Shown: positions 3,561 to 22,940, counted from the first letter of the stretch. The stretch is DNA of 31,795 bases from an uncultured Zetaproteobacteria bacterium (GCA_964534165.1 CAZHOU010000001.1:1-31795); one strand, 5' to 3'. Numbers and translations are program-made. Notes: generated by a model from the letters alone, not told the origin.

Positions 3561-3974
3561 ATGACTACGATGCGTCGAATGCAGCGGGTGCTTCTACGAC
3601 AGCGGAAGGTCAGAGGCGTTCTATTGACCGCCTTTGCCGTGCAGATCATGGCGATGGGTTTTTGTGCCTTGCCTTCGGCACAGGCCGCCCCGATATATAG
3701 CCATGCAAATGCCGCCATGCATGCACAATGCCCGATGCCTGTTCAAAACGATGCACCCGCCTGCCCGCACTGCACTTGGCCGGACATTGGTGTTTCGGCC
3801 TCTCACGGCCCGGAGGCGGCGGTCCTGTTCTTCCAGGCAGCCACTATCCTTCCTCCGGCGGTTCCAGCAGCTTCCCCACCCCGCGTACTGCACGCATCCT
3901 CGCATCATGCGATCCGACTTGCGGGGCGAGGATCCACCCTGATCTACAGGACCAGTCTGCGCATCCGCATCTGA
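3561..3974 (+). CDS. DUF2946-like exported leader protein with CxxC (candidate copper-sensing regulatory peptide)
   Basis: Signal peptide ending SAQA|AP, Met/His segment (HANAAMHAQCPMP), CPHC motif, Pro-rich tail (LPPAVPAASPPR), end LIYRTSLRIRI; directly upstream of the TolC gene. Family assignment from overall architecture. Confidence 0.7.
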   Translation: MTTMRRMQRVLLRQRKVRGVLLTAFAVQIMAMGFCALPSAQAAPIYSHANAAMHAQCPMPVQNDAPACPHCTWPDIGVSASHGPEAAVLFFQAATILPPAVPAASPPRVLHASSHHAIRLAGRGSTLIYRTSLRIRI

Positions 3975-3976
3975 TT

Positions 3977-4042
3977 CAAACCTCCTAAGCCATTCGTGCA
4001 GGTCTCAGACCTGCATGCTTCTACTGCATTTCAGGAGGTTTG
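3977..4042 (+). promoter_or_regulatory. RBS-sequestering mRNA structure (anti-SD/SD duplex with inner hairpin)
   Basis: CAAACCTCCT (3977-3986) is the exact reverse complement of AGGAGGTTTG (4033-4042), which contains the SD of the TolC gene; inner hairpin TGCAGGTC-TCA-GACCTGCA (3997-4015). Confidence 0.75.
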
Positions 4043-4044
4043 TC

Positions 4045-5349
4045 TTGCCTATTCGAAGAACGATGCTGTCCACGCTGCTGGCGCTGGCAACGGCCGCATT
4101 CCCGGCTCTTGCAATCCCGGCGCAATCCGAAACGACGACACCCATGTCCCTGCATGAAGCCGAAAAGACCGCGCTCGGAGCCAATGCCGGACTGGCCGCA
4201 TCGCGAGCCCATGCGTCGGCCATGGCCGCCATCCCGCCGCAGGTAGGAAGCCTTCCCGACCCGAGTCTTTCCTTCGATGCCGTCAACCTGCCGGTGGACA
4301 CCTTCGCCACGGCGCAGGAGAACATGACACAATTGCGGCTGGGCCTGTCCCAGAAGATCCCCTTCCCCGGCAAACTTCGCCTGCGAAGCGAGGCCGCGCG
4401 GCTCCTGGCGTCCTCGGCCGCAATGGATACGGCGGAAACACGCCTGCGCCTGTTGCGCAACGTGCGCATCCGCTGGTGGAACCTGTTCTATCTCGATCGG
4501 GCACTGGAAATCGTGGAACGCAACGAGGATCTGCTGCGGCAATTCATCACCATTGCCCAAACCAAATACAAGGTGGGCAAGGGCCTGCAGCAGGATGTCC
4601 TTCTGGCGCAACTCGAACTCTCCAAATTGCTGGATATCGAGATCCGGCTCAAGGGCTCGCGCCGGGATGAGGAGGCGCGCTTGAACGCCCTCCTGAACCG
4701 GCCGACGAACCTCCATATTCGTCTGCCGTCACGGGTGAAGGAAACATTGCCGCCCCTTCCAAGCGAAACCAAACTGCATCAATGGGCCCTGGAATCGCGG
4801 CCCCTGCTGGCCGCACGCAGGGATCGGGTCAAGGCGGCGAAAAAACAGGTGGACCTGGCCGAACTCGACTACTACCCCGACTTCAAGATCAAAGGTGCCT
4901 GGGGCTTCCGGGGTGGGAACAACCCGGTGAACAACCAGCCGCGCCCGGATTTCGCCACTCTCGGCATCAGCCTCAACCTGCCGATCTACACCGCCACCAA
5001 GCAGGATCGTGAACTCGAACAGCGCAAGGCGGAAGTGGCCAGGGAAGAGTTCGCGCTGCGTGACACACAGGAGGCGGTGTGGTCCGAGGCATCCAACGCC
5101 CTCGCCGACTATCTCCGCGCCCGCGAACAGGCAAGCCTGTTCAAGACCGGCATCATCCCCCAGGCCAATCAGACCGTGGCCTCGATGCTGGCCGGCTATC
5201 AGGTCAACAAGGTGGATTTTCTGAACCTCGTCCGCTCTCAAATCACGCTCTACAACTATGAAACGCTGTACTGGAAAGCCCTGGCCGGGGCAAGACAGAG
5301 CCTGGCACGCCTGGAAGCGGCGGTTGGAAAGGAGATCGTTCATGAATAA
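4045..5349 (+). CDS. TolC-family outer-membrane efflux channel (CusC-equivalent)
   Basis: ORF 4015..5349; AGGAGG at 4033-4038 favours TTG 4045. Signal peptide, SLPDPSLSF, SQKIPFPGKL, LNALLNRP, ISLNLPIY repeats typical of OEP proteins; first gene of an RND triplet. Confidence 0.9.
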   Translation: MPIRRTMLSTLLALATAAFPALAIPAQSETTTPMSLHEAEKTALGANAGLAASRAHASAMAAIPPQVGSLPDPSLSFDAVNLPVDTFATAQENMTQLRLGLSQKIPFPGKLRLRSEAARLLASSAAMDTAETRLRLLRNVRIRWWNLFYLDRALEIVERNEDLLRQFITIAQTKYKVGKGLQQDVLLAQLELSKLLDIEIRLKGSRRDEEARLNALLNRPTNLHIRLPSRVKETLPPLPSETKLHQWALESRPLLAARRDRVKAAKKQVDLAELDYYPDFKIKGAWGFRGGNNPVNNQPRPDFATLGISLNLPIYTATKQDRELEQRKAEVAREEFALRDTQEAVWSEASNALADYLRAREQASLFKTGIIPQANQTVASMLAGYQVNKVDFLNLVRSQITLYNYETLYWKALAGARQSLARLEAAVGKEIVHE

Positions 5350-6721
5350 ACGCATGCTCGCCATTGTCGTCCTGAGCCTGGCGCTCGGTCTCGGGGCTGG
5401 CTACGGCCTGGCTCATCTGCGTGTCACCAAGGGCATGAACACATCCCCGGCGGCAACCGCGGGAAAGAAGGCGATATCCGAACGCAAACCGCTCTTCTAC
5501 CGCAACCCGATGCATCCGGAAATCACTTCGCCGGTGCCGGCCAAGGATGCCATGGGCATGGACTACATCCCCGTCTACCCCGAAGACCTGGGCGGTGGAG
5601 GCAAAAGGCCCGGCACTGTCGTGATCGACCCGACCGTCGTGCAATCCATCGGTGTGCGCACGGCTATCGCTGTGCGCAAGCAGATCTCCCGCACGATCCA
5701 GACCGTGGGCCGGGTGGACTACGACGAGGAGTTCATGACGCGGCTGCACCCGAAGATCAGCGGCTGGATCGACAAGTTGTTTGTCAGCGACACCGGAACA
5801 AGGGTCAAGCGCAATACGATGCTTCTGGCCTTGTATTCCCCGGAACTCGTGACCAGCGAGGAGGAATACTTACTGGCGCTGAAAAACTACGCCACGCTCA
5901 AGACCAGCCCCTTTCCCGATATCCGCAAGGGTGCCTTGGATCTGCTCCGCTCCGCCCGTGAACGGCTTGAACTGCTGGATGTTCCCAAACACCAGCTCGA
6001 GCAGCTGACCAAAACGAGAAAGGTCATGAAGAACCTGCACATCCATTCCCCGTTTCCGGGCATTGTCGTGCACATCGGTGCCCGCGAGGGCCAATACGTG
6101 ACACCCGCCACCGAACTCTACCGCATCGCCGATTTGTCGCGCGTATGGACCTACGTGGACGTCTATGAATACGAACTGCCGTGGGTTCAGGTGGGGGACA
6201 CGGCCGAAATGCGGCTGGAAGCGATCCCCGGCCGCGTGTTCACCGGCATCATCACCTACATCTACCCGTATCTGGACCCCAAGACACGAACCAACAAGGT
6301 GCGGCTCGAATTCACCAATCCGGACCTGTTGCTCAAACCGGACATGTTCGCCGATGTCACGATCCACGCCCGCCGCAAGATGAACGCCGTGGTCATCCCG
6401 ACCGAGGCCGTGATCCGAACCGGCGGAACGCCCAAGATCTTCGTCGTGCGCGGTCCCGGTGTCTTCGAGCCCCGCGACGTGCGCCTGGGCGTTTCCACCA
6501 ACGCCGAAACGCAGATTCTCGCGGGCGTGTCTCCCGGCGAACGGGTCGTGACCTCGGCGCAATTCCTGATCGATTCCGAATCCTCGCTCAAGGAAGCCGC
6601 GGCCAAGATGATGGCCCCAAAGAAATCCCCCACCCCGGTGCGGGAAGGCGGAGACAAGAAGATGAAAGGCATGCAGGGAATGGACATGCCGGAAACGTCG
6701 GCCGGGGAATCGCATGAATGA
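5342..6721 (+). CDS. cusB: CusB-type RND periplasmic adaptor subunit
   Basis: N-terminal anchor; FYRNPMHP...KDAMGMDY Met-triad region; GWIDKL, YSPELV, IADLSRVW, LKPDMFA, SAQFLIDSES; Met-rich tail. ATG 5342 overlaps the TolC stop. Confidence 0.92.
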   Translation: MNKRMLAIVVLSLALGLGAGYGLAHLRVTKGMNTSPAATAGKKAISERKPLFYRNPMHPEITSPVPAKDAMGMDYIPVYPEDLGGGGKRPGTVVIDPTVVQSIGVRTAIAVRKQISRTIQTVGRVDYDEEFMTRLHPKISGWIDKLFVSDTGTRVKRNTMLLALYSPELVTSEEEYLLALKNYATLKTSPFPDIRKGALDLLRSARERLELLDVPKHQLEQLTKTRKVMKNLHIHSPFPGIVVHIGAREGQYVTPATELYRIADLSRVWTYVDVYEYELPWVQVGDTAEMRLEAIPGRVFTGIITYIYPYLDPKTRTNKVRLEFTNPDLLLKPDMFADVTIHARRKMNAVVIPTEAVIRTGGTPKIFVVRGPGVFEPRDVRLGVSTNAETQILAGVSPGERVVTSAQFLIDSESSLKEAAAKMMAPKKSPTPVREGGDKKMKGMQGMDMPETSAGESHE

Positions 6722-7010
6722 CGCAGGCTATCCAAAAGAAAAGGCCTTCATTCCCCCTGCCTTTTCTTTGCGCAAACCAGCGACCCTGGCCCGGATTTTT
6801 CATGGGAACGCGCCTGCCTGCCGCGACTCCGGCGCAGGCATGGATGGACGGCGCAGGCAAGAAAGGGGCTGCGAAATGCAAGGGGTCACGATGCAAAAGC
6901 ACATCGGTTTCGACGCAACCCCTTCATGCTTTTCGATCGTTCAAATCCCGGCGCGTGATCATCATGAAAGATCCGGGCTGGTGATGAAGGGCATGGTGAA
7001 ATCATCATGA
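6714..7010 (+). other. Possible 98-aa ORF filling the cusB-cusA gap (unverified)
   Basis: ATG overlaps the cusB stop and TGA overlaps the cusA ATG (ATGA); no recognisable family. Confidence 0.25.
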
Positions 7011-10000
7011 TCGGGCGCATCATCGAATTGTCGCTGGCCAACCGCTTCCTGGTCTTCATGGCCACGGCACTCCTGATCGCTGCCGGCGCACTGGCCATCA
7101 AGAAGATGCCGCTCGATGCCATTCCCGATCTCTCCGACGTGCAGGTGATCGTATTCACCGAGTTCCCGGGGCAGGCGCCGCAGGTGGTCGAGGACCAGGT
7201 CACCTATCCGCTGACGACGGCCATGCTGGCCGTGCCGCATGCCAAGGTCGTACGCGGCTATTCCTTTTTCGGCTTTTCGTTCGTGTACATCATCTTCGAG
7301 GACGGCACCGACATGTACTGGGCCCGGAGCCGGGTTCTGGAATACCTGAATTACGCCGCCAAGTTCCTCCCGGCCGGCGTCACCCCGACGCTGGGGCCGG
7401 ACGCCACCGGCGTCGGCTGGGTGTACGAATACGCACTCGTGGACCGTTCCGGAAAACACGACCTGTCGGAACTCCGCTCCATCCAGGACTGGTATCTCCG
7501 GTACGCGTTGCAGACCGTTCCCGGGGTTTCGGAGGTCGCCTCGGTCGGCGGTTATGTCAAGCAGTACCAGGTGGAGGTGGATCCGAACAAGCTGGCCTTC
7601 TATAAGATTCCGCTCTCCAAGGTCAAACGCGCCATCCAGCGAAGCAACAACGATGTCGGGGGCCGCCTGATCGAGATGGCCGAATCCGAATTCATGGTCC
7701 GGGCGCTCGGCTACATCAAGTCCCTCGACGACATCCGCAACATTCCCATTGGTGTCGACAAACAGGGTACACCCATCTACGTGCGCGATGTCGCGGATGT
7801 GCACCTCGGGCCCGAACTGCGCCGGGGCCTTGCGGAGTTGAACGGCGAGGGGGAAGTGGCCGGCGGGGTCATCGTCATGCGCTATCGCGAAAATGCGCTC
7901 GAGGTCATCAAGCGCGTGAAGGCGAAGCTGGAGGAATTGAAGGCCGGCTTGCCCGACGGCGTCGAGATCGTTCCCACCTACGACCGCAGCAGCCTGAGCC
8001 TGCGCGCCGTCGAAAACCTCAAGGACAAGCTGCTGGAGGAGTTCATCGTCATCTCTCTCGTCTGCGTGCTGTGTCTGCTGCATGCCAGGAGCGCCTTGGT
8101 CGCCGTGCTGACCCTGCCGCTGGGTGTGCTCGTGGCCTTTATCCTCATGCAATGGCAGGGGCTTGCGGCCAACATCATGAGCCTGGGCGGCATCGCCATC
8201 ACGCTTGGCGCCATGGTGGATGGGGCCATTGTGTTGATCGAAAATGCCCACAAGCATCTCGAGCGGGCGCTGGTCAAAAAACAGAACGTCATTGCGAGCA
8301 GTTCGGAGCAATCTTCGGAGGCCGAGGTTGCCACCGGGGCCCCGCCTTCTCGCCATGACGCGGATGTCACCCTCACCACCAAGGAGCGCTGGAAGGCCGT
8401 GAGCACGGCCGCCAAGGAGGTCGGCCCGGCGCTGTTCTTCTCGCTCGTCATCATCACCATCTCCTACACCGCGGTGTTCACCCTGGAAGCACAGGAGGGA
8501 CGGCTGTTCAAGCCGCTGGCCTTCACCGCCACCTACGCCATGCTCGGTGTCGCCCTGCTGGCAGTGACGCTGACGCCGGTGTTGATGGGTTATTTCATCC
8601 GTGGCCTCATCCTGCCGGAGAAGAAAAACCCGGTGAATCGCGGGCTCATCGCTGTGCACCGGCCGCTTTTGAACCTCACGCTCAAGGGCAAATGGATCTC
8701 GCTTCTCTTGGCGCTGGTGCTCCTCTCAAGCGCCGCCTGGCCACTTTCCAAACTGGGGAGCGAATTCATGCCGCCGCTGGACGAGGGGGACATCCTCTAC
8801 ATGCCCACCACCTTTCCCGGCGTCTCGATCACCAAGGCCAAGGAAATGCTGCAACAGACGGACAAGATCCTGAAAACCTTTCCGGAGGTGAAGACCGTGT
8901 TCGGCAAGGTCGGTCGCGCCGAGACCTCCACCGACCCGGCCCCGCTGTCGATGATGGAGACCATCATCCAGCTCAAGCCCCGCTCCGAGTGGCCGCATCC
9001 GGAGATGAGCACACGCGCGCTGATGCGCAAGATGGACAAGGCCATTCATTTTCCAGGACTGGCCAATGCCTGGACCTATCCGATCAAGACCCGCAACGAC
9101 ATGCTCTCCACCGGCATCAAGACGCCCATCGGCGTGAAGATCTCCGGTCCCGACCTTTCCACCCTGCAGCGCCTGACGGAAAAGATCGAGGATGTGCTGA
9201 AGGGCCTTCCGGAAACCCTGTCCGCGTTCGGTGATCGTGCCGTCGGCGGCCATTACGTGGACTTCCGCATCAAGCGCAAGGAGGCGGCCCGGTACGGCCT
9301 GACCGTTGGGGACGTCGAGGACGTGATCCAATCAGCCATCGGCGGCATGAACATCACGCAGACGGTGGAAGGACTGGAACGCTACCCGGTCAACCTGCGC
9401 TACCCGCGGGCCTACCGGGATGACATTGAGGTCTTGAAGCGGGTGTTGATCCCGACTCCCACCGGCGCCCAGATCCCGCTGGTGCAGGTGGCGGACATTC
9501 GCCTTGTCGGCGGCCCGCCGTCCATCAAGAGCGAGGCGGCCCGTCCCAATGCCTGGATCTACGTCGACCTCAAAACCTCGGATATCGGCGGCTATGTGGC
9601 CAAGGCCAAACAAGCCATCGCCGCACATGTCAAGCTTCCGCCCGGCTACGCCATTGGCTGGTCCGGCCAGTTAGAGTACATGCAGAGAGCGGCGGCCCGG
9701 CTTCGAATCGTCATCCCGCTGACGTTGGTGGCCATCTTCCTGCTGCTCTACTTCAATTTCCGCAATCTGACGGAGCCGCTCGTGGTCATGCTCGCCGTCC
9801 CCTTTGGGCTGATCGGAGGATTCTGGCTCGTCTGGTGGCTGGGTTTCAATCTCAGCGTCGCTGTCGGTGTCGGCTTCATCGCCCTGGCCGGTGTGGCAGT
9901 GGAAATCGGAGTTCTGGTGCTCACATTCATCGACCAGGAGGTGGCTGAGTTCCGGAAGGACAGGCAGGGAGGTGGGCTGACCGCGGTGGAGATCATGGAA

Positions 10001-10246
10001 GCGGTACGCAGCGGCACTGGCAAACGCGTGCGTCCGATCGCGATGACGGCAACGGCGGTAATCGCGGGGCTGTTGCCCATCATGTGGGGGTCGGGCACCG
10101 GCTCGGATGTCATGCAACGCATCGCCGCGCCGATGATCGGCGGCATGCTGACCACCACCCTCCTGTGCCTGCTGATCCTGCCGCTCATCTACGCCCTGAT
10201 CCTGCAGGTGCAGGAGCGGCGCCGCCTGAAGAGGGAGGAGCAATGA
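7007..10246 (+). CDS. cusA: CusA/SilA-family Cu(I)/Ag(I) RND efflux permease
   Basis: LDAIPDLSDVQVI, GPDATGVGW, NIMSLGGIA; the three metal-site Met contexts EFMPPLDEG, PAPLSMMET, DMLSTG; KRVRPIAMT. Confidence 0.96.
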   Translation: MIGRIIELSLANRFLVFMATALLIAAGALAIKKMPLDAIPDLSDVQVIVFTEFPGQAPQVVEDQVTYPLTTAMLAVPHAKVVRGYSFFGFSFVYIIFEDGTDMYWARSRVLEYLNYAAKFLPAGVTPTLGPDATGVGWVYEYALVDRSGKHDLSELRSIQDWYLRYALQTVPGVSEVASVGGYVKQYQVEVDPNKLAFYKIPLSKVKRAIQRSNNDVGGRLIEMAESEFMVRALGYIKSLDDIRNIPIGVDKQGTPIYVRDVADVHLGPELRRGLAELNGEGEVAGGVIVMRYRENALEVIKRVKAKLEELKAGLPDGVEIVPTYDRSSLSLRAVENLKDKLLEEFIVISLVCVLCLLHARSALVAVLTLPLGVLVAFILMQWQGLAANIMSLGGIAITLGAMVDGAIVLIENAHKHLERALVKKQNVIASSSEQSSEAEVATGAPPSRHDADVTLTTKERWKAVSTAAKEVGPALFFSLVIITISYTAVFTLEAQEGRLFKPLAFTATYAMLGVALLAVTLTPVLMGYFIRGLILPEKKNPVNRGLIAVHRPLLNLTLKGKWISLLLALVLLSSAAWPLSKLGSEFMPPLDEGDILYMPTTFPGVSITKAKEMLQQTDKILKTFPEVKTVFGKVGRAETSTDPAPLSMMETIIQLKPRSEWPHPEMSTRALMRKMDKAIHFPGLANAWTYPIKTRNDMLSTGIKTPIGVKISGPDLSTLQRLTEKIEDVLKGLPETLSAFGDRAVGGHYVDFRIKRKEAARYGLTVGDVEDVIQSAIGGMNITQTVEGLERYPVNLRYPRAYRDDIEVLKRVLIPTPTGAQIPLVQVADIRLVGGPPSIKSEAARPNAWIYVDLKTSDIGGYVAKAKQAIAAHVKLPPGYAIGWSGQLEYMQRAAARLRIVIPLTLVAIFLLLYFNFRNLTEPLVVMLAVPFGLIGGFWLVWWLGFNLSVAVGVGFIALAGVAVEIGVLVLTFIDQEVAEFRKDRQGGGLTAVEIMEAVRSGTGKRVRPIAMTATAVIAGLLPIMWGSGTGSDVMQRIAAPMIGGMLTTTLLCLLILPLIYALILQVQERRRLKREEQ

Positions 10247-10719
10247 GAGAGAAAACCATGCGAAAGATCGTTTGTAGCGTCACCTGCATCCTGTGCATCG
10301 GATTCGCACCGGGTACGGTTGTACAGGCTCAGGAGGAACCACACCACCAGGTGGATGGCGCGCAAAAAACCCGGGCACTTGAGGGTGTAGCCATGATTCG
10401 GGAACACGTGGATGGTTACACGGTGAGCTTCCGCGTCATGCCCGCGACAGCGGACATGCGGCACGGCGGCACGCACAATCTGATGATTCGGGTGGAAAAG
10501 GACGGACGGGCGCTTCACGACCTGCTCGTCAACTCCAGGGTGTCCCACCCGATCAAGGAGACGGAGAACAAGATGATGGCCAGAATGGGGGATTGGTACA
10601 TGGCCGGATTTGATCTGGGTCATCCCGGAACACATCAAATCATGGTCCTGTTCAAGACTCCGGACGGGAAGGTCCATCTGGGAAGCATCGAATATCGAAC
10701 AGGGAGGAACAAGAAATGA
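10243..10719 (+). CDS. Exported Met/His-rich small protein (YtkA/FixH-like fold suspected), paralog A
   Basis: ATG overlaps cusA stop; signal peptide; motif KMMARMGDWYM; clear similarity to 11432..11890. Confidence 0.75.
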   Translation: MREKTMRKIVCSVTCILCIGFAPGTVVQAQEEPHHQVDGAQKTRALEGVAMIREHVDGYTVSFRVMPATADMRHGGTHNLMIRVEKDGRALHDLLVNSRVSHPIKETENKMMARMGDWYMAGFDLGHPGTHQIMVLFKTPDGKVHLGSIEYRTGRNKK

Positions 10720-11435
10720 ACATCAATGAGACGACAACCACAGTTGCAGGTATACGAACCATCCTTCAGGAAGCGCTCCAGCCCGTGCGTGCGGGATTGC
10801 TGATGGCGACAGGAGCCATGATCCTCGGCGTGCTGTGGGCCGGATACATGGCGATCAATCATGAGCAATTGCACGGCGGCTTCGAGAAGCAGGAAGCCGT
10901 ACTCAAGGCGGGAGGAACACCACCACGGATCGATGAAAATAACACGTCAATGGGCATCAAGCTGATTCCCCGGGCCTATGCCCACGGGGATCACGAAGAC
11001 CATGGAACAGGCCTTCCCGATGCTTTGCACCAGCATTCCCACTCGGGCAGCCTGGCCATGGATGCCATGCGGCGCCTGCTGCGCGGCCACATCCATTGGA
11101 TGGGACTTGGACTCCTGTCCGCCATGATGTTGCTTGTCCTCGCCTTCACTTCCCTGCGACCCGGCTGGAAAACCCTCCTCGGATGGGCCTTAGGCATTGG
11201 CGCGCTGGCCTACCCTTCCGCCTGGATCCTGATGGGCTTCCGCACCGTGGTCATGGGCCCGGATGCAGCCAAAGCAAGCGTGATGTGGCTGTTCGTCCCG
11301 CCAGCCGTCCTGCTGCTGGGATCGCTGGTCGTCGTTTTCGGTATCCTGATGCTTGAAATGACGGGTTGGCACAGGAAGACATTTTTCCCCCGCTTTTTTG
11401 AAAAGCCCGTGCCGGTTGCCGAGGAACGGGAATGA
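10716..11435 (+). CDS. 4-TM membrane protein with His-rich loop
   Basis: Four hydrophobic segments, loop AHGDHEDH...LHQHSH, HIH motif at the start of TM2; overlaps neighbours by 4 nt at both ends. Confidence 0.75.
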   Translation: MNINETTTTVAGIRTILQEALQPVRAGLLMATGAMILGVLWAGYMAINHEQLHGGFEKQEAVLKAGGTPPRIDENNTSMGIKLIPRAYAHGDHEDHGTGLPDALHQHSHSGSLAMDAMRRLLRGHIHWMGLGLLSAMMLLVLAFTSLRPGWKTLLGWALGIGALAYPSAWILMGFRTVVMGPDAAKASVMWLFVPPAVLLLGSLVVVFGILMLEMTGWHRKTFFPRFFEKPVPVAEERE

Positions 11436-12813: not shown

Positions 12814-12840
12814 CGGACACTCTCCCGCGAGCGCTCCGCC

Positions 12841-12904: not shown

Positions 12905-13002
12905 AAACCGTTCATTGTGGCGGCACGTGAACTCCCCATCCGAACCTTAGCCCGCGCGTGGACGAATCCGCAGATCTTTCCGACCGTTGCCGGGGGAGCG
13001 GG

Positions 13003-13740: not shown

Positions 13741-13742
13741 CC

Positions 13743-14681: not shown

Positions 14682-14714
14682 GAAATCCGGCAAGCTCTAC
14701 GGAGGATGTGAGTA

Positions 14715-14798
14715 ATGTACTGTTCCCCGTTCTACGACTTGCGCAGAAACCCGCATACGATGAATCCATGGGTAGCGCCCCCCGATCTCCTTGCGTAG
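14715..14798 (+). other. Possible 27-aa upstream ORF before copA ([27 protein letters not shown])
   Basis: GGAGG at 14701-14705, ATG 14715, TAG 14796-14798; no family recognised. Confidence 0.25.
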
Positions 14799-14973
14799 CC
14801 GCTCTTCGACACAAAAGAGGTTTTTCCATGCTTCTGCGCCATCCGGATCCCAAGCAGTTGTGGGTTTCGGCTTCAAGCGATGTGACTCCGGTCATGGCAG
14901 CCGCCGTTCCATGCGGGGGCCATGGGGTGGGAAACAAACTATTTGCACGATCAATGTTGGAAAGGAGAGCGGC

Positions 14974-17544
14974 ATGAGAAAAGACCCGGTATGCGGCATG
15001 GAGGTTGACGAAAAGAGCAGGTTCCGCCGCACCTTTCGTGGCGCCGAATTCCTGTTCTGCAGCGAACGTTGCCTCGAACGCTTCAGCGAGAATCCAAACG
15101 ACTGGTTGCCCGAGAAATGCGCCTTCGATCCGGTCTGCGGCATGAAGGTGCCTCTCGAATCCACGAACCGCATCGAACATGCCGGACAAAACTATTATTT
15201 CTGTTCGCAGCACTGCATCGACAAGTTCCGTGAAAACCCCGGCGCCTACACGGGCAGGAAACACCCTCCCCGTCACGAACACGAGAAGAAGCCGACACCG
15301 GAAACCACCGCTGCGGAAGGGATGTATTTCTGCCCCATGTGCCCCGGGCAAGAGCAGCAGGGGCCTGGGGTGTGCAAATCGTGCGGCATGGCCCTGGAGC
15401 CGATGCCGGGAGCCCAAACACCCGGGAAGACCGAGTATTTCTGTCCCATGCATCCGGAGATCGTCCGTGATCAGCCCGGGAGTTGCCCGAAGTGCGGGAT
15501 GGCGCTGGAAGCGCGCCTTGTCGCCGTCCAGGAAGAAGAAAATCCGGAATACCGGGATATGCTGCGGCGTTTCAAGCTCGGCGTGGTGCTGATCGTTCCC
15601 CTGTTCCTCCTCGCCCTCGGCAGCGAACTCGCGCCCTCTCACCTGCCCGCATGGCTGTCGCCGAAGCTCGTCCAGTGGCTCGAATTCATCCTTGCCGCTC
15701 CCGTCGTTCTGTGGGGTGGCTGGCCCTTCTTCGTCCGCGGCTGGCAATCGCTCTTCCACCGGCATCTGAACATGTTCACGTTGATCGGCCTGGGCGTGGC
15801 GGTTGCCTTCACCTACAGCCTCGTGGCACTGCTAGCCCCCGATTTGTTCCCGGCGATCATGCGCAAGGCCGGGGGGCGGGTTGACGTTTATTTCGAGGCC
15901 GCGGCCGCCATCACCGTCCTCGTGCTGCTGGGGCAGGTGTTGGAGCTGCGCGCCCGATCCCGCACCAACGAAGCCATCAAGCTCCTGCTCGGCATGGCGC
16001 CGAAAACGGCCCGGCGCGTCCGTGCCGACGGCAGCGAGGAGGATGTGCCGCTGCAAGACGTCCATCCCGGCGATATTCTGCGCATCCGGCCGGGAGAGAA
16101 GGTGCCGGTGGATGGCGTGGTCACCGATGGCGAGAGCCATGTAGATGAATCGATGGTCACCGGCGAGCCGATGCCGGTGGTGAAAAGCGCGGGCGATCCC
16201 CTGATCGGCGCCACGGTCAACGGCAACGGCACGCTGCTCATGCGGGCCGAGAAGGTTGGATCGGAAACCCTGTTGGCGCAGATCGTGGACATGGTCCGCG
16301 AGGCGCAGCGGACCCGGGCCCCGATCCAAAGGCTCGCCGACATGGTGGCCTCCTGGTTCGTGCCCGCGGTCGTGGCGGTCTCCGCCATCACCTTCGTCGT
16401 CTGGTTCGTGGCTGGCCCCGAGCCCCGGCTTGCGCATGCCGTCGTCAACGCGGTCGCCGTTCTGATCATTGCCTGTCCCTGCGCCCTGGGGCTGGCCACA
16501 CCGATCTCGATCATGGTCGGTACCGGCCGCGGCGCCACGGCCGGTGTTCTGATCAAGAACGCCGAGGCCCTGGAGATGATGGAAAAGGTGGATACACTGG
16601 TCGTGGACAAGACCGGCACACTGACCGAGGGCAAACCGCGGCTTACCAGCATCCTTCCGCTCGGTGATTTCAGTGAGGAGGAAATCTTGAAATGGGCCGC
16701 TGGTGTCGAACGCGCCAGCGAGCATCCCCTGGCCACGGCCATACTGGAAGCGGCGCGAATACGCGGCCTCAAACCGGAATCCATCGAAAATTTCAAGGCC
16801 GTCACCGGCAAGGGAGTGCGCGCGAAGGTCGCAGGGCACGAAATCCTGCTGGGCAATGTGGCCCTGATGCGGGAAGCCGGCATCGACACCTCCCCCATGG
16901 AAGCGCTTCGGGGAGAACAAAGACAGGCCGGAGAGACCATCCTCCATCTTGCCGTGGACGGGGAGGCGGCCGCGCAGCTCGGTGTCTCCGACCCGATCAA
17001 GTCCTCGACACCCGCGGCCATCCAGGCCTTACATGCCGAGGGTCTTGAAGTGGTGATGTTGACCGGGGACCGGCACGACACCGCCGCGCTCGTTGCGGAA
17101 AAACTCGGAATCGATCGCGTCATCGCCGAGGTCCTGCCGCAGCAAAAGGCGGAGGTCGTGAAGGAACTGCAACGCGAGGGACGCATCGTGGCCATGGCCG
17201 GAGACGGCATCAACGATGCCCCGGCGCTGGCCGCCGCCCATGTCGGCATCGCCATGGGAACGGGTACGGATGTGGCAATGGAGTCGGCCGGAATCACGCT
17301 GGTCAAGGGGGATCTGAACGGCATCGTCCGAGCCCGCCGCCTATCGCGGGCCGTGATGCGGAACATCCGTCAGAATCTGTTCTTCGCCTTTGTTTACAAC
17401 TCCCTCGGCGTGCCGGTCGCTGCCGGTGTCCTATATCCTTTCTTTGGCGTCCTTCTTTCACCGATCATCGCCGCGGCGGCCATGAGCTTCTCCTCGGTTT
17501 CGGTGATCACCAATGCCCTCAGACTGCGGAAAGTGAGGCTGTAA
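14974..17544 (+). CDS. copA: Cu(I)-translocating P1B-1 ATPase with two YHS and two CPM-type metal-binding domains
   Basis: DPVCGM x2, [37 protein letters not shown] and MSFSS; SD AAGGAG before ATG 14974. Confidence 0.96.
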
Positions 17545-17996
17545 TGCCGGAAACATTCGCTTTTCTCACCCGAACGAAGAGGCGCCGGTCCCTTATGCGT
17601 GAAATGACGACGACCGCTCTGGTCATCGCCACCGCCGACCTGGCCGGCTGCGGCTCCGAGTCCCCCGCCGACAAGATCCATGCAAGAACCACTTCCTTGG
17701 CCGGGGAAATCGTCCCACCGGACCCCATTCGCGGTTCTTCTCTGTTCGCCGCCAACTGCAGCCGCTGCCATGGTGAAAAGGGGATGGGCAGCCGGCTGGG
17801 ACCACCACTCATCCACCGCATCTATGCGCCGACCCGTCCCAGTGATCTGGCCTTCTATCGCGCCATCCTCGGTGGCAGCCGTCAGCACCATTGGTCATTC
17901 GGCAACATGCAGCCGATCGCCGGCGTGAAAGTCTGGGATATCGCACACATCATCGCTTACGTCCGACAACAGCAGCGGCGGGTGGGGATCGAATAA
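17544..17996 (+). CDS. Monoheme cytochrome c lipoprotein of copper-resistance clusters
   Basis: LAGC lipobox, CSRCH heme motif, HHWSFGNM with the likely axial Met; TAATG overlap with copA. True start may be 17595 or 17604. Confidence 0.78.
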   Translation: MPETFAFLTRTKRRRSLMREMTTTALVIATADLAGCGSESPADKIHARTTSLAGEIVPPDPIRGSSLFAANCSRCHGEKGMGSRLGPPLIHRIYAPTRPSDLAFYRAILGGSRQHHWSFGNMQPIAGVKVWDIAHIIAYVRQQQRRVGIE

Positions 17997-18524
17997 ATGG
18001 GAAAGATTGCCTCTCTGTTCATCTTGATGCTGACACTCTCCTCGTGCAGTGCTCCAAGCAACACCGCAATCGATCGAGGAGACATGATGCCGGCCATGAA
18101 GTTGCACGATCTGAACGACCACATCGTTTACAGCCGTGAGCGATTCAGTGGCAAGGTGATCGTTTTCAACGTATGGGCCACATGGTGCCCCCCCTGCCGC
18201 AAGGAAATGCCCGATCTGCAGCGATTGAGTACGATCCTGCCACGGGATCGTTACAGCGTCGTGGCCCTGTCGGTGGACCGGAATCTCGCCGATGTCAAAA
18301 CCTTCGTGCATGAACACGGGCTCCGCTTCCCGGTCTTCTGGGACCAGGGTGGCGCGTCCATCGCAACTCCAAAACTTGGCGTCTTCAAATATCCCGAAAC
18401 CTTCATCGTCAATCGCGAGGGCCGGGTGGTCGTCAAGGTCATCGGAGCCTATCCATGGGCAAGCGATGATACCGTGAAAGCGCTCAAATACATCGCCAAA
18501 TTCGGGAAGCTCCCCCGGGGTTAG
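17997..18524 (+). CDS. TlpA-family thiol-disulfide oxidoreductase lipoprotein
   Basis: LSSC lipobox, NVWATWCPPC, YPETFIVNREG. Confidence 0.9.
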   Translation: MGKIASLFILMLTLSSCSAPSNTAIDRGDMMPAMKLHDLNDHIVYSRERFSGKVIVFNVWATWCPPCRKEMPDLQRLSTILPRDRYSVVALSVDRNLADVKTFVHEHGLRFPVFWDQGGASIATPKLGVFKYPETFIVNREGRVVVKVIGAYPWASDDTVKALKYIAKFGKLPRG

Positions 18525-18526
18525 CT

Positions 18527-19981
18527 GTGCGTGCGCCGCTTGCATGGAAGATCGGCTGCTGGCTCGGCGTAGTGTTCGCACTGGTCGTCTATGTCGGCTG
18601 GCACATGGTGATGGATTTCAATGCTCTTCACCGCGAGGCGCGATTCATCGAAACCGTCAATCATGAAAGCCATTACCTGCATGAGCTGGAGATGGCGCTT
18701 GTCCATACCATCGCTCCGGTGAGATCGTATCTGATCAGTGGCGACTGGCGCCTGCCGGACGCGTTCGCAAGGAAAAGCGCCCACATGCGCCATTTGCTGC
18801 ACGCCTCCGTCTCCGGCCGTGTACGTGATCTCCATCTCGAACGTTCCCTGGCAGAAATCACCGTCCGGGCCAAGCATATCTTCTCGTTGCCGTTTCCCGT
18901 CGGCAACCTGGAGGGCCCGATTCTCATGCGCGAGATCGACGATATCGTCAACCACGTATCGCAGCGACTGTCGGCAAGGCACGACGAGCTGCACCAGGGA
19001 GTGGTAATGTCGATGCGCAAGGTTGGTGTCATGCGCAAGGACATGCGGACGGACTTCCAGCTTTCCATCCTTCTTCTTTTCTTCATTCTGACCGGCATGA
19101 CCATGTGGCTCTACATGCACATGGTCCGCCCGCTCGTGCACCTGCAACGTGAGCTGAAAAAAGTGGGTCGGGGAGAATTCGACATCCATTGCCCCAGACT
19201 GCCGATGGATGAACTGGGAGAACTGGCACAGGCCTGCAATTTGATGGGTGAAGCGCTGCAGACACGGGAGGCCATGTTGAACCATGCACGCAACATGGCC
19301 GCCCATCACGAGAAAATGCGGGCACTGGGACTGATGGCCGCCGGCATCGCCCATGAAGTGGGGAACCCGCTGTCGGCCACTTCGGTTTCCCTCGAAACCG
19401 CCTTGCGCGGCCTGGAGCGGAAGAATTACGAAAAATGCAGAGAGGGGGTGTTGACGGCCCTGGAGGAATTGAAACGTATGGAGAGCATCATCCGCAACAT
19501 CCTCGATTACGGCGCCGTCAACAATGAAACCTCCTTGACCCGCATTGATGCCGTACCGGTGGCTCGGAGCGCCTTCTCCCTGGCGCGCATGTCACCGCAA
19601 CGACGGCAAGTGGATCTCAAATTTGAAATCGAATCCTCAAGCCTGTTCGCCCGTGGCAATGCCTCCATCCTGCGACAGGTCCTGGTCAATCTTCTCCTCA
19701 ACGCCATGGATGCCTGCAGCGAAGAAGGATGCGTCTCGCTCAAGGCCACGCGTCTGGACGGCGGTATCGCTCTGGATGTTTCCGACAACGGCCCCGGTGT
19801 ACCGGAACATATGCGGGAGGAAATTTTCACACCGTTGTTCACCACCAAATGCAGCGGTTCCGGTTCAGGGGTCGGCCTGGCCATCAGCCGCGAGCTGATG
19901 CAACGTATGCACGGAAAACTTGAACTCGTGCACAGCGACGGCCGCGGCAGCCGATTCCGTGCCTGGCTGCCTGCGGGATAA
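18527..19981 (+). CDS. Sensor histidine kinase (2 TM, periplasmic sensor, HAMP, HisKA, HATPase)
   Basis: H-box AHEVGNPL, N-box LLLNAMDA, DNGPGV, FTPLFTTK, GSGVGL; HAMP DELGELA. Confidence 0.92.
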   Translation: MRAPLAWKIGCWLGVVFALVVYVGWHMVMDFNALHREARFIETVNHESHYLHELEMALVHTIAPVRSYLISGDWRLPDAFARKSAHMRHLLHASVSGRVRDLHLERSLAEITVRAKHIFSLPFPVGNLEGPILMREIDDIVNHVSQRLSARHDELHQGVVMSMRKVGVMRKDMRTDFQLSILLLFFILTGMTMWLYMHMVRPLVHLQRELKKVGRGEFDIHCPRLPMDELGELAQACNLMGEALQTREAMLNHARNMAAHHEKMRALGLMAAGIAHEVGNPLSATSVSLETALRGLERKNYEKCREGVLTALEELKRMESIIRNILDYGAVNNETSLTRIDAVPVARSAFSLARMSPQRRQVDLKFEIESSSLFARGNASILRQVLVNLLLNAMDACSEEGCVSLKATRLDGGIALDVSDNGPGVPEHMREEIFTPLFTTKCSGSGSGVGLAISRELMQRMHGKLELVHSDGRGSRFRAWLPAG

Positions 19982-19992
19982 AGGCGGATCGC

Positions 19993-21300
19993 ATGCGTAT
20001 ACTGATCGTCGAAGACGAACGACATATCCGACAAGGCGTCATGAACGTACTCAACGAGGAAGGTTTCGATACCCTGGAAGCCGGCAACCTGCGGAAAGCG
20101 CTCGACATCCTTCGGGCGGGGGATGTGGACGCGATCCTGAGCGATATAAGGCTCCCTGACGGCGACGGTTTCGATCTTTTGCATGCCCTGAAGGCCAGGA
20201 ACGATCCCGTTCCATGCATTCTGATGACCGCCTTCGGCAATCGGGATATCGCCAACCAGGCCCTGAAGGAAGGCGCCTACGACTATATTTCGAAGCCCAT
20301 TCGCTTCGATGAATTGCTGGCGCGGCTGTTTTGCTTGCAAGAAAGGATCGAGCTGGAAAGGCGGCTGCAAAGCATGGCCGCCGCCCTCAAGGATGAAGGC
20401 AAACTCGCTTCGATGGGGAATTCCGCAGCCATGCGACAGGTTCGTTTCCTGGCCGAAAAGGCCGCGGCGGCCCGCTCGCCGGTGCTCATCCGTGGAGAAA
20501 GGGGAGTGGGCAAGCGAAGACTGGCTCACCTGATCCACATGACGAGCGAACGGGCGGCCGAACCGTTTGTGCAGTTGAGCTGCGCCTCCATTCCGGAGGA
20601 ATTGATGGAGCGGGAGCTGTTCGGCTATCGCCGCGGCGCCTTTCCGGGCGCGGACCGCGGATACGAGGGTATCTTGTCCAAGGCCGGGCGCGGCACATTG
20701 TTCTTGGATGAGGTCAGCGAGCTTCCGCGCATCATCCAGGCGGCGTTGTTGCGCGTACTGGACGACGGCTGCTTCCAGCCCTTGGGGGAGACCCGCAGGC
20801 AACCCTTTCAGGCCCGCATTATCACCGCCACCGACAAGGATCTGAGAAACGAGACCCTGCATGGGCGCTTTCGTGAGGACCTGTTTTTCTGCCTCGATGT
20901 GCTGCATATCGATATCCCGCCTCTGCGGGAGCGCCGGGAGGACATCGTGCCGCTGGCGGTGTCTATCCTGGAAAAGCTGGCCGCGGACCGGTCGATCCGG
21001 ATTGCACCCCTGGACGCCCGCCAATGCCTGTGGCTCAAATCGCAGGAATGGCCCGGCAATGTGCGGGAGTTGAGAAACACCCTGGAACGAGCATTGCTCC
21101 TGGCCCGGGACGGCAGGCTGGATCTGCCGCCTCGGAGAATGGTCGAAGGAAGAACGGGAGCGACACTCGCCGAGGCCACGGCGAATTTTGAGCGCAGCCT
21201 GATTCTGCAAACGATCGAGGCCTGCGACGGTGACAAGGAGGAGGCCAGCCGTCGTCTGGGTATCGGCTTGTCCACCCTGTATCGCAAATTGGGAACCTGA
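19993..21300 (+). CDS. NtrC-family response regulator (REC-AAA+-Fis HTH) with degenerate sigma-54 interaction motifs
   Basis: REC with VED, SDIRLPD, SKP; Walker A GERGVGK, GAFPGA, Walker B FLDEV, WPGNVREL; HTH LGIGLSTLYRKL. Confidence 0.9.
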   Translation: MRILIVEDERHIRQGVMNVLNEEGFDTLEAGNLRKALDILRAGDVDAILSDIRLPDGDGFDLLHALKARNDPVPCILMTAFGNRDIANQALKEGAYDYISKPIRFDELLARLFCLQERIELERRLQSMAAALKDEGKLASMGNSAAMRQVRFLAEKAAAARSPVLIRGERGVGKRRLAHLIHMTSERAAEPFVQLSCASIPEELMERELFGYRRGAFPGADRGYEGILSKAGRGTLFLDEVSELPRIIQAALLRVLDDGCFQPLGETRRQPFQARIITATDKDLRNETLHGRFREDLFFCLDVLHIDIPPLRERREDIVPLAVSILEKLAADRSIRIAPLDARQCLWLKSQEWPGNVRELRNTLERALLLARDGRLDLPPRRMVEGRTGATLAEATANFERSLILQTIEACDGDKEEASRRLGIGLSTLYRKLGT

Positions 21301-21349
21301 ATCCCATAATCGGGATTCCCGACCCCGGTATATTTCCCAAATATGGGAA
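21301..21349. promoter_or_regulatory. Tandem palindromic operator-like sites upstream of cyc2
   Basis: ATCCC-N6-GGGAT (21301-21316) and perfect TTCCCA-N4-TGGGAA (21334-21349), starts 33 bp apart. Confidence 0.55.
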
Positions 21350-21390
21350 TAAAGGCCCTTGCACACAAAATCCTTGGAAATCCATCCATC

Positions 21391-21419
21391 TTGTATCTAC
21401 TTGATTAGATTATCATATT
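21391..21419 (+). promoter_or_regulatory. Candidate sigma-70 promoter for cyc2
   Basis: TTGTAT-N17-CATATT, 4/6 match at each hexamer, in an AT-rich patch. Confidence 0.3.
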
Positions 21420-21518
21420 CCACATGTTCACCCACACCGCGGGTGACTGTTGCATATTGCTACATGCCTCGCCATCGACGTTGATCACCCGTCGCTGCGG
21501 CTTCATCGTTTCTTCCAT

Positions 21519-21636
21519 TCTTCCCGGGAGAGGAGGCTTTCCTGCCCGTCTTTCGCCTCGGTCGCGGAAGGAAGCGGGCAGGTCGAAGGAGAGCATCGCT
21601 TGAAAGCGGGAAGACCCATCAAGGCTCCACGGAGCC
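21519..21636 (+). ncRNA. Candidate structured 5' leader of cyc2 (unassigned)
   Basis: Helices 21519-21525/21608-21614, 21541-21556/21564-21582, 21597-21600/21605-21608 and 21623-21627/21632-21636, found by eye. Confidence 0.35.
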
Positions 21637-21665
21637 GAATCAAGAACCTTGGAGGTTAAACACTC

Positions 21666-22940
21666 ATGAGAAAAATTCTGCTTACAACCGCAGCCCTGGC
21701 GCTGGTCCTGGTTTCCGGCGTTGCGCTGTCGCCCAACAAGGCTGAGGCTTTTCCGGCCTTCGCACGCCAGACCGGGGCCGCCTGCCTGAGCTGCCACTTC
21801 CAGACCTTCCCGGCGCTGACCGCCTTCGGACGCGCCTTCATGATGGGCTCGTTCACCGATGTCGGCGATCAGGCCTTGGTCGAGGACGACAACCTCTCCA
21901 TCCCGTCCGTGCTCAACGCCTCGTTCGAGGTGCGTGCCAACGCCACCCATACCAGCAGCTCCGGCGCCGCACCGTCGGATACCACATATTCCATTCCCGC
22001 CGACGAGACACGTTTGTTCGTGGCCGGACGCATCGGAGCGCATACCGGTGCCGTGATCGTGTTCACGGGCGGCAGTGATGCCATGAACATGAAACCAACC
22101 CCCGTCTGGATGCTCTTGAATTCCTGGGATGTGGGCGGCTTCAAACTCGGCCTCGGTGCCCACAAGAGTCCCTGGGGCGGCTCCAACGTGATGGAGGTGT
22201 CGAACGTCTTCGGTCACCGCGGCGACAAACTCGGCGGCCAAGACATCTCCGCCATCTCCAACTCCGGCTTCACCAAGATGACCACCGGTATCGGTACTTG
22301 GGTCGGCAACGATCTCGGCTACCTTCAGTTCTCACTCGTGGCCCCTGCCAACAAGACCCTGGGTGGAACGAACATCGGCCTGAATTTCGGCAAGCTGGTG
22401 CGTGGCGTGGCGACGCTTGATATCGGCGGCTGGGATACCCTGGTCGGCTTCGGCATCGTCACCGGCACCGCCGGCAAGAACAACGCCGGTGCCAGCGGTT
22501 CCACCGGAGCCCGGGTGCCGATGAAGCTGCAATTCGTGGATGCCCAGATGCAGGGCGAGGTCGGCGACATGAGTGTCGGCGTCTACGGCGACTACGCTCA
22601 TGCCAAGGGCAGGACTTCCGCGGCCGGTACGGCCAACTTCTACGGTTCCAATCTCGGAACAAACACCAACGGCAGCAAATTCGACGCCTTCTCGATCCGC
22701 GCCGAAATCGAGCCGATCAACCGCTTCCTGTTCGGTGTCGGCTACGGCTATCAGAAGTTCACGCAACTGGGTAAGAACGATATCACCCAGAAGACCGTGC
22801 ATCTTGCCGCCACCTACAAGGTGTACCAGAACTTCGACATCAACGTGCGCTTCGACAACGAGAAGCTCAGTGACGGGGTAACGCCGAGCAATTCCGTGAC
22901 GACTCGCACGACCGTCTTTGAGGTCGACGCTCTGATGTAA
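21666..22940 (+). CDS. cyc2: Cyc2 outer-membrane cytochrome c-porin fusion (putative Fe(II) oxidase)
   Basis: Signal peptide ending KAEA, then FPAFARQTGAACLSCHFQTFPALTAFGRAF (Cyc2 signature with a single CxxCH), followed by an amphipathic beta-strand region; GGAGG SD at 21651. Confidence 0.9.
   Translation: MRKILLTTAALALVLVSGVALSPNKAEAFPAFARQTGAACLSCHFQTFPALTAFGRAFMMGSFTDVGDQALVEDDNLSIPSVLNASFEVRANATHTSSSGAAPSDTTYSIPADETRLFVAGRIGAHTGAVIVFTGGSDAMNMKPTPVWMLLNSWDVGGFKLGLGAHKSPWGGSNVMEVSNVFGHRGDKLGGQDISAISNSGFTKMTTGIGTWVGNDLGYLQFSLVAPANKTLGGTNIGLNFGKLVRGVATLDIGGWDTLVGFGIVTGTAGKNNAGASGSTGARVPMKLQFVDAQMQGEVGDMSVGVYGDYAHAKGRTSAAGTANFYGSNLGTNTNGSKFDAFSIRAEIEPINRFLFGVGYGYQKFTQLGKNDITQKTVHLAATYKVYQNFDINVRFDNEKLSDGVTPSNSVTTRTTVFEVDALM

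Follow-up and report, generated by a model that had tools for sequence, protein, structure and literature searches.

Cyc2 is the main genetic marker for tracing neutrophilic iron oxidation. We analyzed a cyc2 locus of an uncultured Zetaproteobacteria bacterium (GCA_964534165.1, CAZHOU010000001.1:1-31795), using the entire 31,795-bp contig, hereafter called the window. An open reading frame (ORF) listing combined with Pfam and NCBIfam scans showed a co-oriented block on the plus strand (4015–21300), in which copper genes are followed by genes for a cytochrome c, a redoxin, a sensor kinase and a response regulator. The cyc2 gene comes next on the same strand (21666–22940). Gene content and orientation are as claimed in the original prediction, which described co-oriented copper genes ending in a two-component system directly 5' of cyc2. 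Here we describe how this two-component system is linked to cyc2 and to the metal-export genes. The window genes from 4015 to 23907 are all on the plus strand.

The cyc2 gene encodes a protein of 424 aa, in which a mono-haem cytochrome is fused to a porin, as assigned from its sequence, its position in the tree and its AlphaFold2 (AF2) model. An N-terminal Sec signal peptide (MRKILLTTAALALVLVSGVALSPNKAEA) can be read straight from the translation, and the single CXXCH motif (CLSCH at residue 40) contributes the only two cysteines. The AF2 model (pLDDT 74.8, pTM 0.76) shows a helical N-terminus, the predicted haem domain, and then a barrel built from 17 strand segments between residues 83 and 423, or roughly 16 strands, the count being approximate. 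Named relatives are Mariprofundus (M. ferrooxydans) proteins with 52–54% identity. As expected for a Cluster 1 protein, the sequence nests inside the Zetaproteobacterial Cyc2 sequences in a neighbor-joining (NJ) tree built without Cluster 2 and Cluster 3 references. The window protein fits the sequence and structure criteria of the Cyc2 fused cytochrome-porins and is a putative Fe(II) oxidase; a tested Cluster 1 member oxidizes Fe(II) (PMC8406198). Its Met content is 3.25%, compared with 2.67% in other Cyc2 proteins.

To compare cyc2 neighbourhoods, 5 genome and 80 metagenome loci around Cyc2 homologues (numbered with the prefix L) were collected, together with contigs for selected proteins, and all window proteins were mapped onto them. 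Whenever a Cyc2 was at least 58% identical to that of the window and enough upstream DNA was available, the regulator gene was found directly upstream, with a spacer of 260–400 bp (365 bp from the regulator stop to cyc2 in the window). This regulator-linked set represents about 8 lineages (window, L087, L001, L002, L003, L008/L009/L088/L089, L010/L090/L091 and L012), so that the linkage is not unique to one genome. The regulator was upstream in 0 of about 40 Cyc2 loci with at most 54% identity, and in the M. ferrooxydans cyc2 locus (L006) the upstream gene is feoB, without a regulator. Regulator linkage is therefore invariant in a sub-clade of Cyc2 proteins that is monophyletic (NJ bootstrap 100/100), and copper genes recur around the pair. 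Within 10 kb, all 7 linked lineages with enough flanking DNA have copper or RND genes, compared with 3 among the 35 remaining distinct loci (Fisher p = 4e-6, a value that overstates independence, the loci being phylogenetically related). The arrangement of the copper genes around the regulator-cyc2 pair varies among lineages. In L087 and L002, copA is 3' of cyc2, which is thus embedded in the copper cluster; in L090/L010, cyc2 is flanked by a divergent cusCBA and an orphan regulator; and in L009 copA, DsbD_TM, redoxin, kinase, regulator and cyc2 follow one another.

Three cyc2 copies are present in the metagenome-assembled genome CAZUWV. The L090 copy is regulator-linked, and the other two (L004 and L005) are on contigs too short or truncated to judge. 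Because three copies coexist in this genome, the regulator-linked clade is a paralogue, and the window Cyc2 is accessory rather than canonical. A paralogue clade is consistent with published work reporting that Zetaproteobacteria hold several cyc2 copies that are unrelated to one another and whose significance is not understood (PMC7029218).

The regulator gene (19993–21300) encodes an NtrC-family response regulator with REC, AAA+ sigma-54-interaction and HTH_8 domains (Pfam E-values 3.5e-55, 4.5e-29 and 2.6e-11, respectively), and in the PDB it matches Aquifex NtrC1 and NtrC4 best. An OmpR/CusR-type regulator was rejected since AAA+ and HTH_8 are present and no match to Trans_reg_C was obtained. 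The GAFTGA loop is not intact in the window regulator, where it reads GAFPGA. The same variant is found in L001, L009, L010/L090 and L012, while L003 has GALPGT, L087 has GAFSGA, and L002 and L092–L097 have GAFTGA.

Two palindromes lie in the spacer between the regulator gene and cyc2. Palindrome 1 (21301–21316; ATCCC-N6-GGGAT, ATCCCATAATCGGGAT) is a candidate binding site of the regulator, and palindrome 2 (21334–21349; TTCCCAAATATGGGAA) is the sole exact TTCCC-N6-GGGAA match in the window. Across 14 loci, the palindromes are 8.8-fold enriched 3' of regulator genes (26 in 5.7 kb vs 108 in 207 kb; Poisson p = 2.6e-16, which overstates independence for the same reason as above). They occur mostly in pairs 31–33 bp apart and are kept in spacers that have otherwise diverged.

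In the L087 spacer, two palindromes are followed after about 95 bp by TGGCACACCCCTTGCG, located 117 nt before the cyc2 ATG, and the regulator carries GAFSGA. This is the layout of a textbook enhancer-dependent sigma-54 promoter. A weaker form of it is found in L002, with TGGCATCATGCTTGTT 105 nt before the ATG and a GAFTGA regulator. The best scores of a sigma-54 position weight matrix (PWM) in the spacer are 13.8 for L087, 10.0 for L002 and 4.0 for the window. More generally, the loci with GAFTGA or GAFSGA have sigma-54 PWM matches of at least 9, whereas those with GAFPGA or GALPGT have none in the intergenic region, where scores are at background level. Pattern and PWM scans did not find a -24/-12 promoter (TGGCAC-N5-TTGC) at the window cyc2. 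In the GAFPGA and GALPGT loci, the sequence aligned with the -24 element is TTGCAT, TGCCAC, TGACAC or TGATAC, with no TTGC after it. These loci share a conserved (A)TGTTGAC-N17-CAnnGT block and, after it, a conserved leader of about 150 nt. In the window, alignments, the PWM and comparison with L087 place the conserved promoter-region block at 21450–21509 (plus strand), where TTGCAT stands in place of the -24 TGGCAC seen in relatives and is followed by TTGATC-N17-CATCGT. Together, the GAFPGA change and the decayed -24/-12 element indicate that activation in the window genome is probably sigma-54-independent. We infer that the sub-lineage of the window left the sigma-54 mode and retained the binding sites. 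Atypical enhancer-binding proteins that have an altered GAFTGA and use sigma-70 have been documented (PMC6158489).

The strongest sigma-54-like site of the whole window (TGGAACGAGCATTGCT, 21083–21098) is within the regulator gene, 583 nt before cyc2. As it encodes the conserved LERALL and is weaker in relatives at synonymous positions, we treated it as probably a coding coincidence and rejected it as a sigma-54 promoter. With 76% identity, L087 has the Cyc2 closest to that of the window, but the kinase and regulator of L087 are not closer than their counterparts in other lineages, and L087 retains the sigma-54 promoter. The pattern hints at recombination between cyc2 and its regulator genes or at repeated promoter loss.

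A conserved structured 5' leader, consisting of a long hairpin and a GGCUC..GAGCC hairpin before the ribosome-binding site, was predicted at 21520–21640 (plus strand). RNAalifold on six aligned sequences gives 36 pairs, 7 of them with compensatory changes, and the fold of the window sequence alone is not significant (z = -1.5). The leader corresponds to no Rfam family, as nothing in the window scores above a gathering threshold, and one Rfam miRNA match in the leader was set aside as due to chance. The structured leader is confined to lineages that lost the sigma-54 promoter (window, L001, L003, L009, L010 and L012). The best Fur box match in the region upstream of cyc2 (12/19) is at background level.

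An intrinsic terminator of cyc2 is located at 22942–23006 (plus strand; -36.9 kcal/mol, z = -4.7, followed by U8). Given this strong terminator, cyc2 appears to be a transcription unit of its own, with read-through from the regulator gene possible. Inside the copper block, we found intergenic gaps of 285 bp (6722–7006), 144 bp (12814–12957) and 109 bp (14682–14790), and given these gaps the block probably comprises several transcription units. From copA through the regulator gene, the genes are tightly packed, neighbours overlapping by 1 bp or being at most 11 bp apart. The claim that no terminator is recognized inside the cluster stands insofar as none is convincing (13 terminator-like sites in the block vs 17.3 expected by chance), but it does not extend to cyc2, which is separate and has its own terminator. 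When the cluster was scanned for sigma-70 sites and terminators, hits were no more numerous than in shuffled sequence, and the real cyc2 terminator was overlooked.

The gene preceding the regulator (18527–19981) encodes a sensor histidine kinase with a periplasmic all-alpha sensor followed by HAMP, HisKA and HATPase domains (Pfam and AF2 model). The sensor covers about residues 27–178 and, in the model, forms four helices between two transmembrane segments. Among 39–83 homologues, H49, H52 and E55 in the first helix and H152 in the last helix are invariant, and D156 and M163 in the last helix, as well as most of the GNxEGPILM loop, are conserved in at least 90%. As these residues are at like heights above the membrane, it is plausible that they share a putative metal site. 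An exhaustive search of 1.84 billion representative proteins recovered 24 clusters of the sensor family at E-values up to 1e-3, nearly all of them Zetaproteobacterial kinases of about 490 aa; a word-indexed search with the sensor fragment gave just 2 matches, and it was the full-length and exhaustive searches that yielded the family. Neither kinase nor regulator reaches an NCBIfam equivalog cut-off, the nearest models being AtoS/ZraS and NtrC/AtoC/ZraR. A CusS-type kinase was rejected (TIGR01386, 77 bits vs a cut-off of 292), and so were the ZraS and ZraR equivalogs (120 bits vs 479 and 260 bits vs 760, respectively).

We also examined six more distant kinase-regulator homologues (35–47% identity). 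All six adjoin CopA with YHS/HMBD, RND, CDF or DUF411 genes, and all six regulators carry GAFTGA. In 4 of the 6 loci, the pair is followed by a gene for a Met-rich Cyc2-like protein of 450–480 aa with 6–7% Met (L092, 14346–15797; L093, 13193–14551; L094, 13808–14470; L097, 10978–11601). Alignment of Cyc2 with the Met-rich proteins by hhalign covers the haem domain and first strands only (97% probability, 127 columns). This Met-rich family may or may not equal the published 'Cluster 3' of Zetaproteobacterial Cyc2.

The L092 locus comes from M. ferrooxydans PV-1 (DS022294.1, about 654–676 kb). It contains the kinase, the regulator, two palindromes, TGGTATAACATTTGCT, an 18/19 Fur box and then an outer-membrane protein gene, followed by two further palindromes, the Met-rich Cyc2-like gene and homologues of two window genes, g10 (48% identity) and g11 (51%). 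The PV-1 outer-membrane protein gene (13205–14005) is homologous to g22 (23083–23907), which lies 3' of cyc2 in the window and encodes a small outer-membrane beta-barrel protein ending in YEF, with 64% identity to the PV-1 gene between regulator and Cyc2-like gene. The PV-1 homologue has a weak OMP_b-brl match and g22 itself has none. Since g09, g10, g11 and g22 recur in the regulator-linked operon of PV-1, the unassigned genes of the window are part of the same conserved set. The best Fur-box-like site of the window (23018–23036, 15/19) is between the cyc2 terminator and g22, and the PV-1 box (L092 13165–13183) comes right after the sigma-54 promoter. The sites suggest a possible Fur/iron input into the same gene set.

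The copper block starts with genes for a CusC-like outer-membrane efflux protein (4015–5349; Pfam OEP 4e-40), a CusB-like membrane-fusion protein (5258–6721; HlyD_D23 6e-80, best NCBIfam match CusB), the real start of which is probably near 5342, and a CusA-type Cu(I)/Ag(I) RND pump (7007–10246) that passes TIGR00914. The pump matches E. coli CusA with 1266 bits and ZneA with 530 bits, and it keeps the Met triad (equivalents of M573, M623 and M672). The components of a CusCBA system are represented, with a Met-triad CusA-type pump, a membrane-fusion protein and an outer-membrane factor. Further downstream, a Cu(I)-exporting P1B-1 ATPase, CopA, with two YHS domains and HMBD repeats is encoded at 14791–17544 (TIGR01511 610 bits, cut-off 397). 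Besides the N-terminal metal-binding domains, it has the signatures expected of this subfamily, namely CPC562, DKTGT606, YN869 and MSFSS898 (MxxSS). The copper assignment of the block, predicted from the scores and Met triad of CusA and from the subfamily model and motifs of the ATPase, is solid.

Between the pump and the ATPase, four small genes encode g09 (10243–10719), a Met/His-rich secreted protein with homologues in L001, L097 and PV-1 and a paralogue of g11; g10 (10716–11435), a His-rich membrane protein with 48% identity to the PV-1 gene 3' of the Cyc2-like gene; g11 (11432–11890), itself Met/His-rich and secreted, 51% identical to its homologue in the PV-1 operon; and g12 (11887–12276), a secreted YHS/TRASH-like Cys-rich protein with the motif VCMV...YYGCCNMC. 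In L002 and L087, the g10 homologue sits between cyc2 and copA. Pfam and NCBIfam scans gave no significant family for g09–g12, g22 or the Met-rich Cyc2-like protein, and a Ctr match at E = 0.045 in these scans was disregarded. The next genes encode a CopZ-like HMA protein with a GMKCDGC motif (12273–12506; Pfam HMA 4e-11), a second HMA protein (12496–12813; 8e-13) and, assigned by Pfam, a YHS-SLOG fusion (12958–13740) and a patatin-like phospholipase (13743–14681). YHS fused to a SLOG/LOG-like (LDcluster4) domain and followed by a patatin-like phospholipase is an odd pairing for a copper locus; the pair is kept in L001 (3926–5575) with 77% and 71% identity. Between copA and the kinase gene are genes for a mono-haem cytochrome c with a CSRCH motif, probably a lipoprotein (17544–17996; Pfam Cytochrom_C), which is kept in L001, L003 and L087, and for a TlpA/ResA-like thiol-disulfide oxidoreductase with WCPPC (17997–18524; Pfam AhpC-TSA and Redoxin), whose NCBIfam matches to ResA and TlpA are under cut-off.

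The genes cusB and cusA are usually adjacent. The 285-bp gap between them (6722–7006) holds only spurious-looking ORFs, with no CusF-like gene, and the ORFs 3465–3974 and 6714–7010 were rejected as genes because of their spurious-looking composition and lack of homologues. Upstream of the copper cluster, a VKOR-DsbA fusion (disulfide-forming; 1512–2741) is separated from it by a divergent TrmB-like methyltransferase gene on the minus strand (2773–3558). Downstream are genes for a cyclopropane-fatty-acid synthase (23964–25325) and PEP synthase (25640–28126) and, on the minus strand, for a GltD-like Fe-S flavoprotein (28896–30926) and a TPP enzyme, possibly a 2-oxoacid:ferredoxin oxidoreductase subunit (30593–31597). 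The G+C content is 0.67–0.69 past 29 kb, compared with 0.52–0.62 over most of the cluster (maximum 0.66, inside copA).

We interpret the locus as encoding an accessory Cluster-1-type Cyc2 that would be controlled by a dedicated NtrC-family two-component system belonging to a heavy-metal export cluster, a reading to which we assign a probability of roughly 0.55. According to this model, the four-helix periplasmic sensor, with its His/His/Glu and His/Asp site, would detect a periplasmic metal signal, and the kinase would then phosphorylate the regulator. The regulator would bind the two TTCCC-N6-GGGAA palindromes, which start one base past its own stop codon, and activate a cyc2-specific promoter, so that cyc2 would be transcribed alone, as a monocistronic mRNA carrying a long structured leader and ending at the cyc2 terminator. 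Canonical sigma-54 activation, persisting in relatives, would be the ancestral mode. The likely role of the product would be that of an extra outer-membrane cytochrome-porin under metal stress, keeping electron uptake going. CXXCH maturation would be shielded from copper by the co-encoded cytochrome c and TlpA/ResA-like reductant, to which relatives add DsbD_TM; copper has been documented to damage the assembly of c-type cytochromes (PMC4600104).

Judged from gene neighbourhoods and alignments, the coupling of the two-component system to the accessory cyc2, and of this unit to metal-export genes, is well supported. As for the signal, the mostly Cu(I)-specific neighbours and the Met-rich targets favour copper. 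The restriction of the sensor to one lineage, its His/Glu/Asp site, the Fur boxes and the CDF/Czc neighbours speak for Fe(II) or another divalent metal. Several observations weigh against control by a copper-cluster regulator as we propose it. None of the window's copper genes is preceded by the palindrome, and they are therefore not visibly in the same regulon. The sensor is unrelated to CusS/CopS, and its His/Glu/Asp residues suit Cu no better than Fe(II), Zn or Ni; some relatives of the kinase-regulator pair are adjoined by CDF/Czc-type rather than copper exporters. On the Cyc2 tree, L087, with its sigma-54 promoter, nests among GAFPGA lineages, so that loss of sigma-54 control needs more than one event, or recombination. 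The relatedness of the loci, which inflates both the Fisher and the Poisson statistics, counts on the same side.

If the kinase senses Fe(II), iron or redox, the system would be an iron-responsive switch for an alternative Cyc2, with the exporters co-located through life at metal-rich vents. The conserved sensor residues are indeed His, Glu and Asp, not Met or Cys, and the sensor family is essentially limited to Zetaproteobacteria, which are obligate iron oxidizers. Fur-box-like sites beside the gene of the linked outer-membrane protein (18/19 in PV-1 and 15/19 in the window), CDF and Czc-type exporters among the neighbours, and an increase in environmental cyc2 expression after Fe(II) addition (PMC7029218) point in the same direction. 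However, metal-export genes accompany the kinase-regulator pair in each of the 13 lineages examined, with copper-specific ones predominating (CusA Met triad, P1B-1, DUF411, HMA, YHS), and the canonical M. ferrooxydans cyc2, of the kind reported to be highly expressed (PMC7029218), has no such two-component system. The PV-1-type target is moreover Met-rich (6–7%), pointing to Cu(I). We regard the iron switch as possible, though on the unlikely side. The Met-rich targets of PV-1, L093, L094 and L097, typical of Cu(I)-binding proteins, would also suit cytochrome-porins acting as outer-membrane Cu(I) oxidases or copper handlers in place of CueO/PcoA, with electrons passing via the co-encoded cytochrome c to the respiratory chain. 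No multicopper oxidase domain was found in the scanned window ORFs or among the genes listed for the fetched loci, and in L087 and L002 cyc2 lies between regulator and copA. Yet the window Cyc2 is barely richer in Met than other Cyc2 proteins (3.25% vs 2.67%) and nests in Cluster 1, whose tested member oxidizes Fe(II) (PMC8406198), and we consider this role unlikely.

Terminal oxidases require copper, and this, together with the conserved linkage, would fit a scheme in which copper status governs the main iron-oxidation pathway through the two-component system. Such a scheme seems quite improbable, as the linked Cyc2 is just one paralogue (one of the three CAZUWV copies is shown to be regulator-linked), the M. 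ferrooxydans cyc2 adjoins feoB without a regulator, and the locus contains no oxidase, cyc1 or cupredoxin gene. The original prediction that copper status may regulate iron oxidation thus holds in part: the regulator linkage is conserved and regulation of cyc2 is probable, but the target is an accessory paralogue and copper as the signal is favoured by context only. The regulator is missing at L006 of M. ferrooxydans and at 34 further distinct Cyc2 loci that are more distant, so 'copper regulates iron oxidation' is an overstatement. The 365-bp spacer and the separate transcription unit of cyc2 might be taken to mean that the two genes are neighbours by chance, through a rearrangement or an assembly error, without any regulatory link. 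The same junction is, however, present in independent assemblies and in about 8 lineages, which excludes a contig misjoin near 21300 and makes accidental adjacency very unlikely; it is also contradicted by the synteny survey. Palindromes kept in diverged spacers and the sigma-54 promoter in relatives likewise speak against a rearrangement, and we consider fortuity extremely improbable. A further, unlikely reading is a lineage-specific Zetaproteobacterial metal-stress regulon in which a novel periplasmic sensor kinase and its NtrC-type regulator would switch on specialized outer-membrane cytochrome-porins (Met-rich in PV-1, a recruited Cluster-1 Cyc2 in the linked clade) to oxidize Cu(I), or to remove Cu(II)-reducing Fe(II), at the surface. 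If true, it would represent a haem-based stand-in for the periplasmic multicopper oxidases that iron oxidizers cannot afford; the Cyc2 family would then not be purely energy-conserving, and the presence of cyc2 would be no clean marker of iron oxidation.

In full-text literature searches, we found no publication that connects cyc2 of neutrophilic iron oxidizers with a copper cluster, sigma-54 or an NtrC-type regulator; the PV-1 genome paper mentions two-component genes near heavy-metal secretion genes in general terms only. Work in the field states that the regulation of cyc2 has yet to be tested and that it is not known why several copies are kept (PMC7029218). The locus may give a first testable lead on both questions, as it offers a concrete regulator, candidate binding sites, a canonical promoter in relatives and a defined paralogue clade, and the homologous regulon of the culturable M. 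ferrooxydans PV-1 makes metal induction directly measurable. It also provides an apparently recent switch of an enhancer-binding protein off sigma-54, with both states preserved among close relatives. If the paralogue answers metal stress and not the supply of iron for energy, a separation by clade is needed before cyc2 counts and transcripts from metagenomes can be taken as iron-oxidation activity.

Compared with known systems, the window Cyc2 resembles the PV-1 Cyc2 of Cluster 1 (PMC8406198, PMC7029218) in its signal peptide, single N-terminal CXXCH, barrel of about 16 strands and 52–54% identity. It differs from the M. ferrooxydans protein in belonging to a separate supported paralogue clade, with an NtrC-type regulator upstream and copper genes, where M. 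ferrooxydans has feoB and no regulator. The rus operon of A. ferrooxidans (cyc2-cyc1-cox-rus, RegBA; PMC5506826) likewise combines cyc2 with copper-related genes under two-component control, but it contains a Cluster 2 Cyc2, co-transcribed oxidase and rusticyanin genes, another regulator family and no copper-export genes. The Acidithiobacillus analogy drawn in the original prediction does not apply, as no oxidase or cupredoxin gene is co-transcribed here. Like the window, PcoAB/CueO and the Scs/TlpA-CcdA modules combine a redox protein with an outer-membrane barrel in a copper cluster, together with a thioredoxin-like protein (joined by DsbD_TM in relatives of the window); unlike PcoAB/CueO, the window has no multicopper oxidase, its redox protein being a haem cytochrome-porin.

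On the regulatory side, CusRS/CopRS are the copper sensors expected in such a cluster, beside cusCBA or cop genes, whereas the window regulator is not of the OmpR type and its kinase reaches 77 bits vs the heavy-metal kinase cut-off of 292. ZraSR (HydHG), the Zn/Pb-responsive, sigma-54-dependent system of E. coli, is similar in pairing a periplasm-sensing kinase and an NtrC-family regulator with an envelope metal-stress target. The window proteins score far under its equivalog cut-offs, and they differ in the unrelated lineage-specific sensor, the cytochrome-porin target and the degenerate GAFTGA and -24/-12 elements. The sigma-70 enhancer-binding proteins TyrR, HupR, PhhR, NtrX and VpsR (PMC6158489) are, like the window regulator, NtrC-like with an altered GAFTGA and a target without -24/-12. 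In contrast to these, the Walker A and B motifs of the window regulator look intact, and its use of sigma-70 is presumed. As close relatives retain the sigma-54 mode, the change in the window regulator looks like a recent switch.

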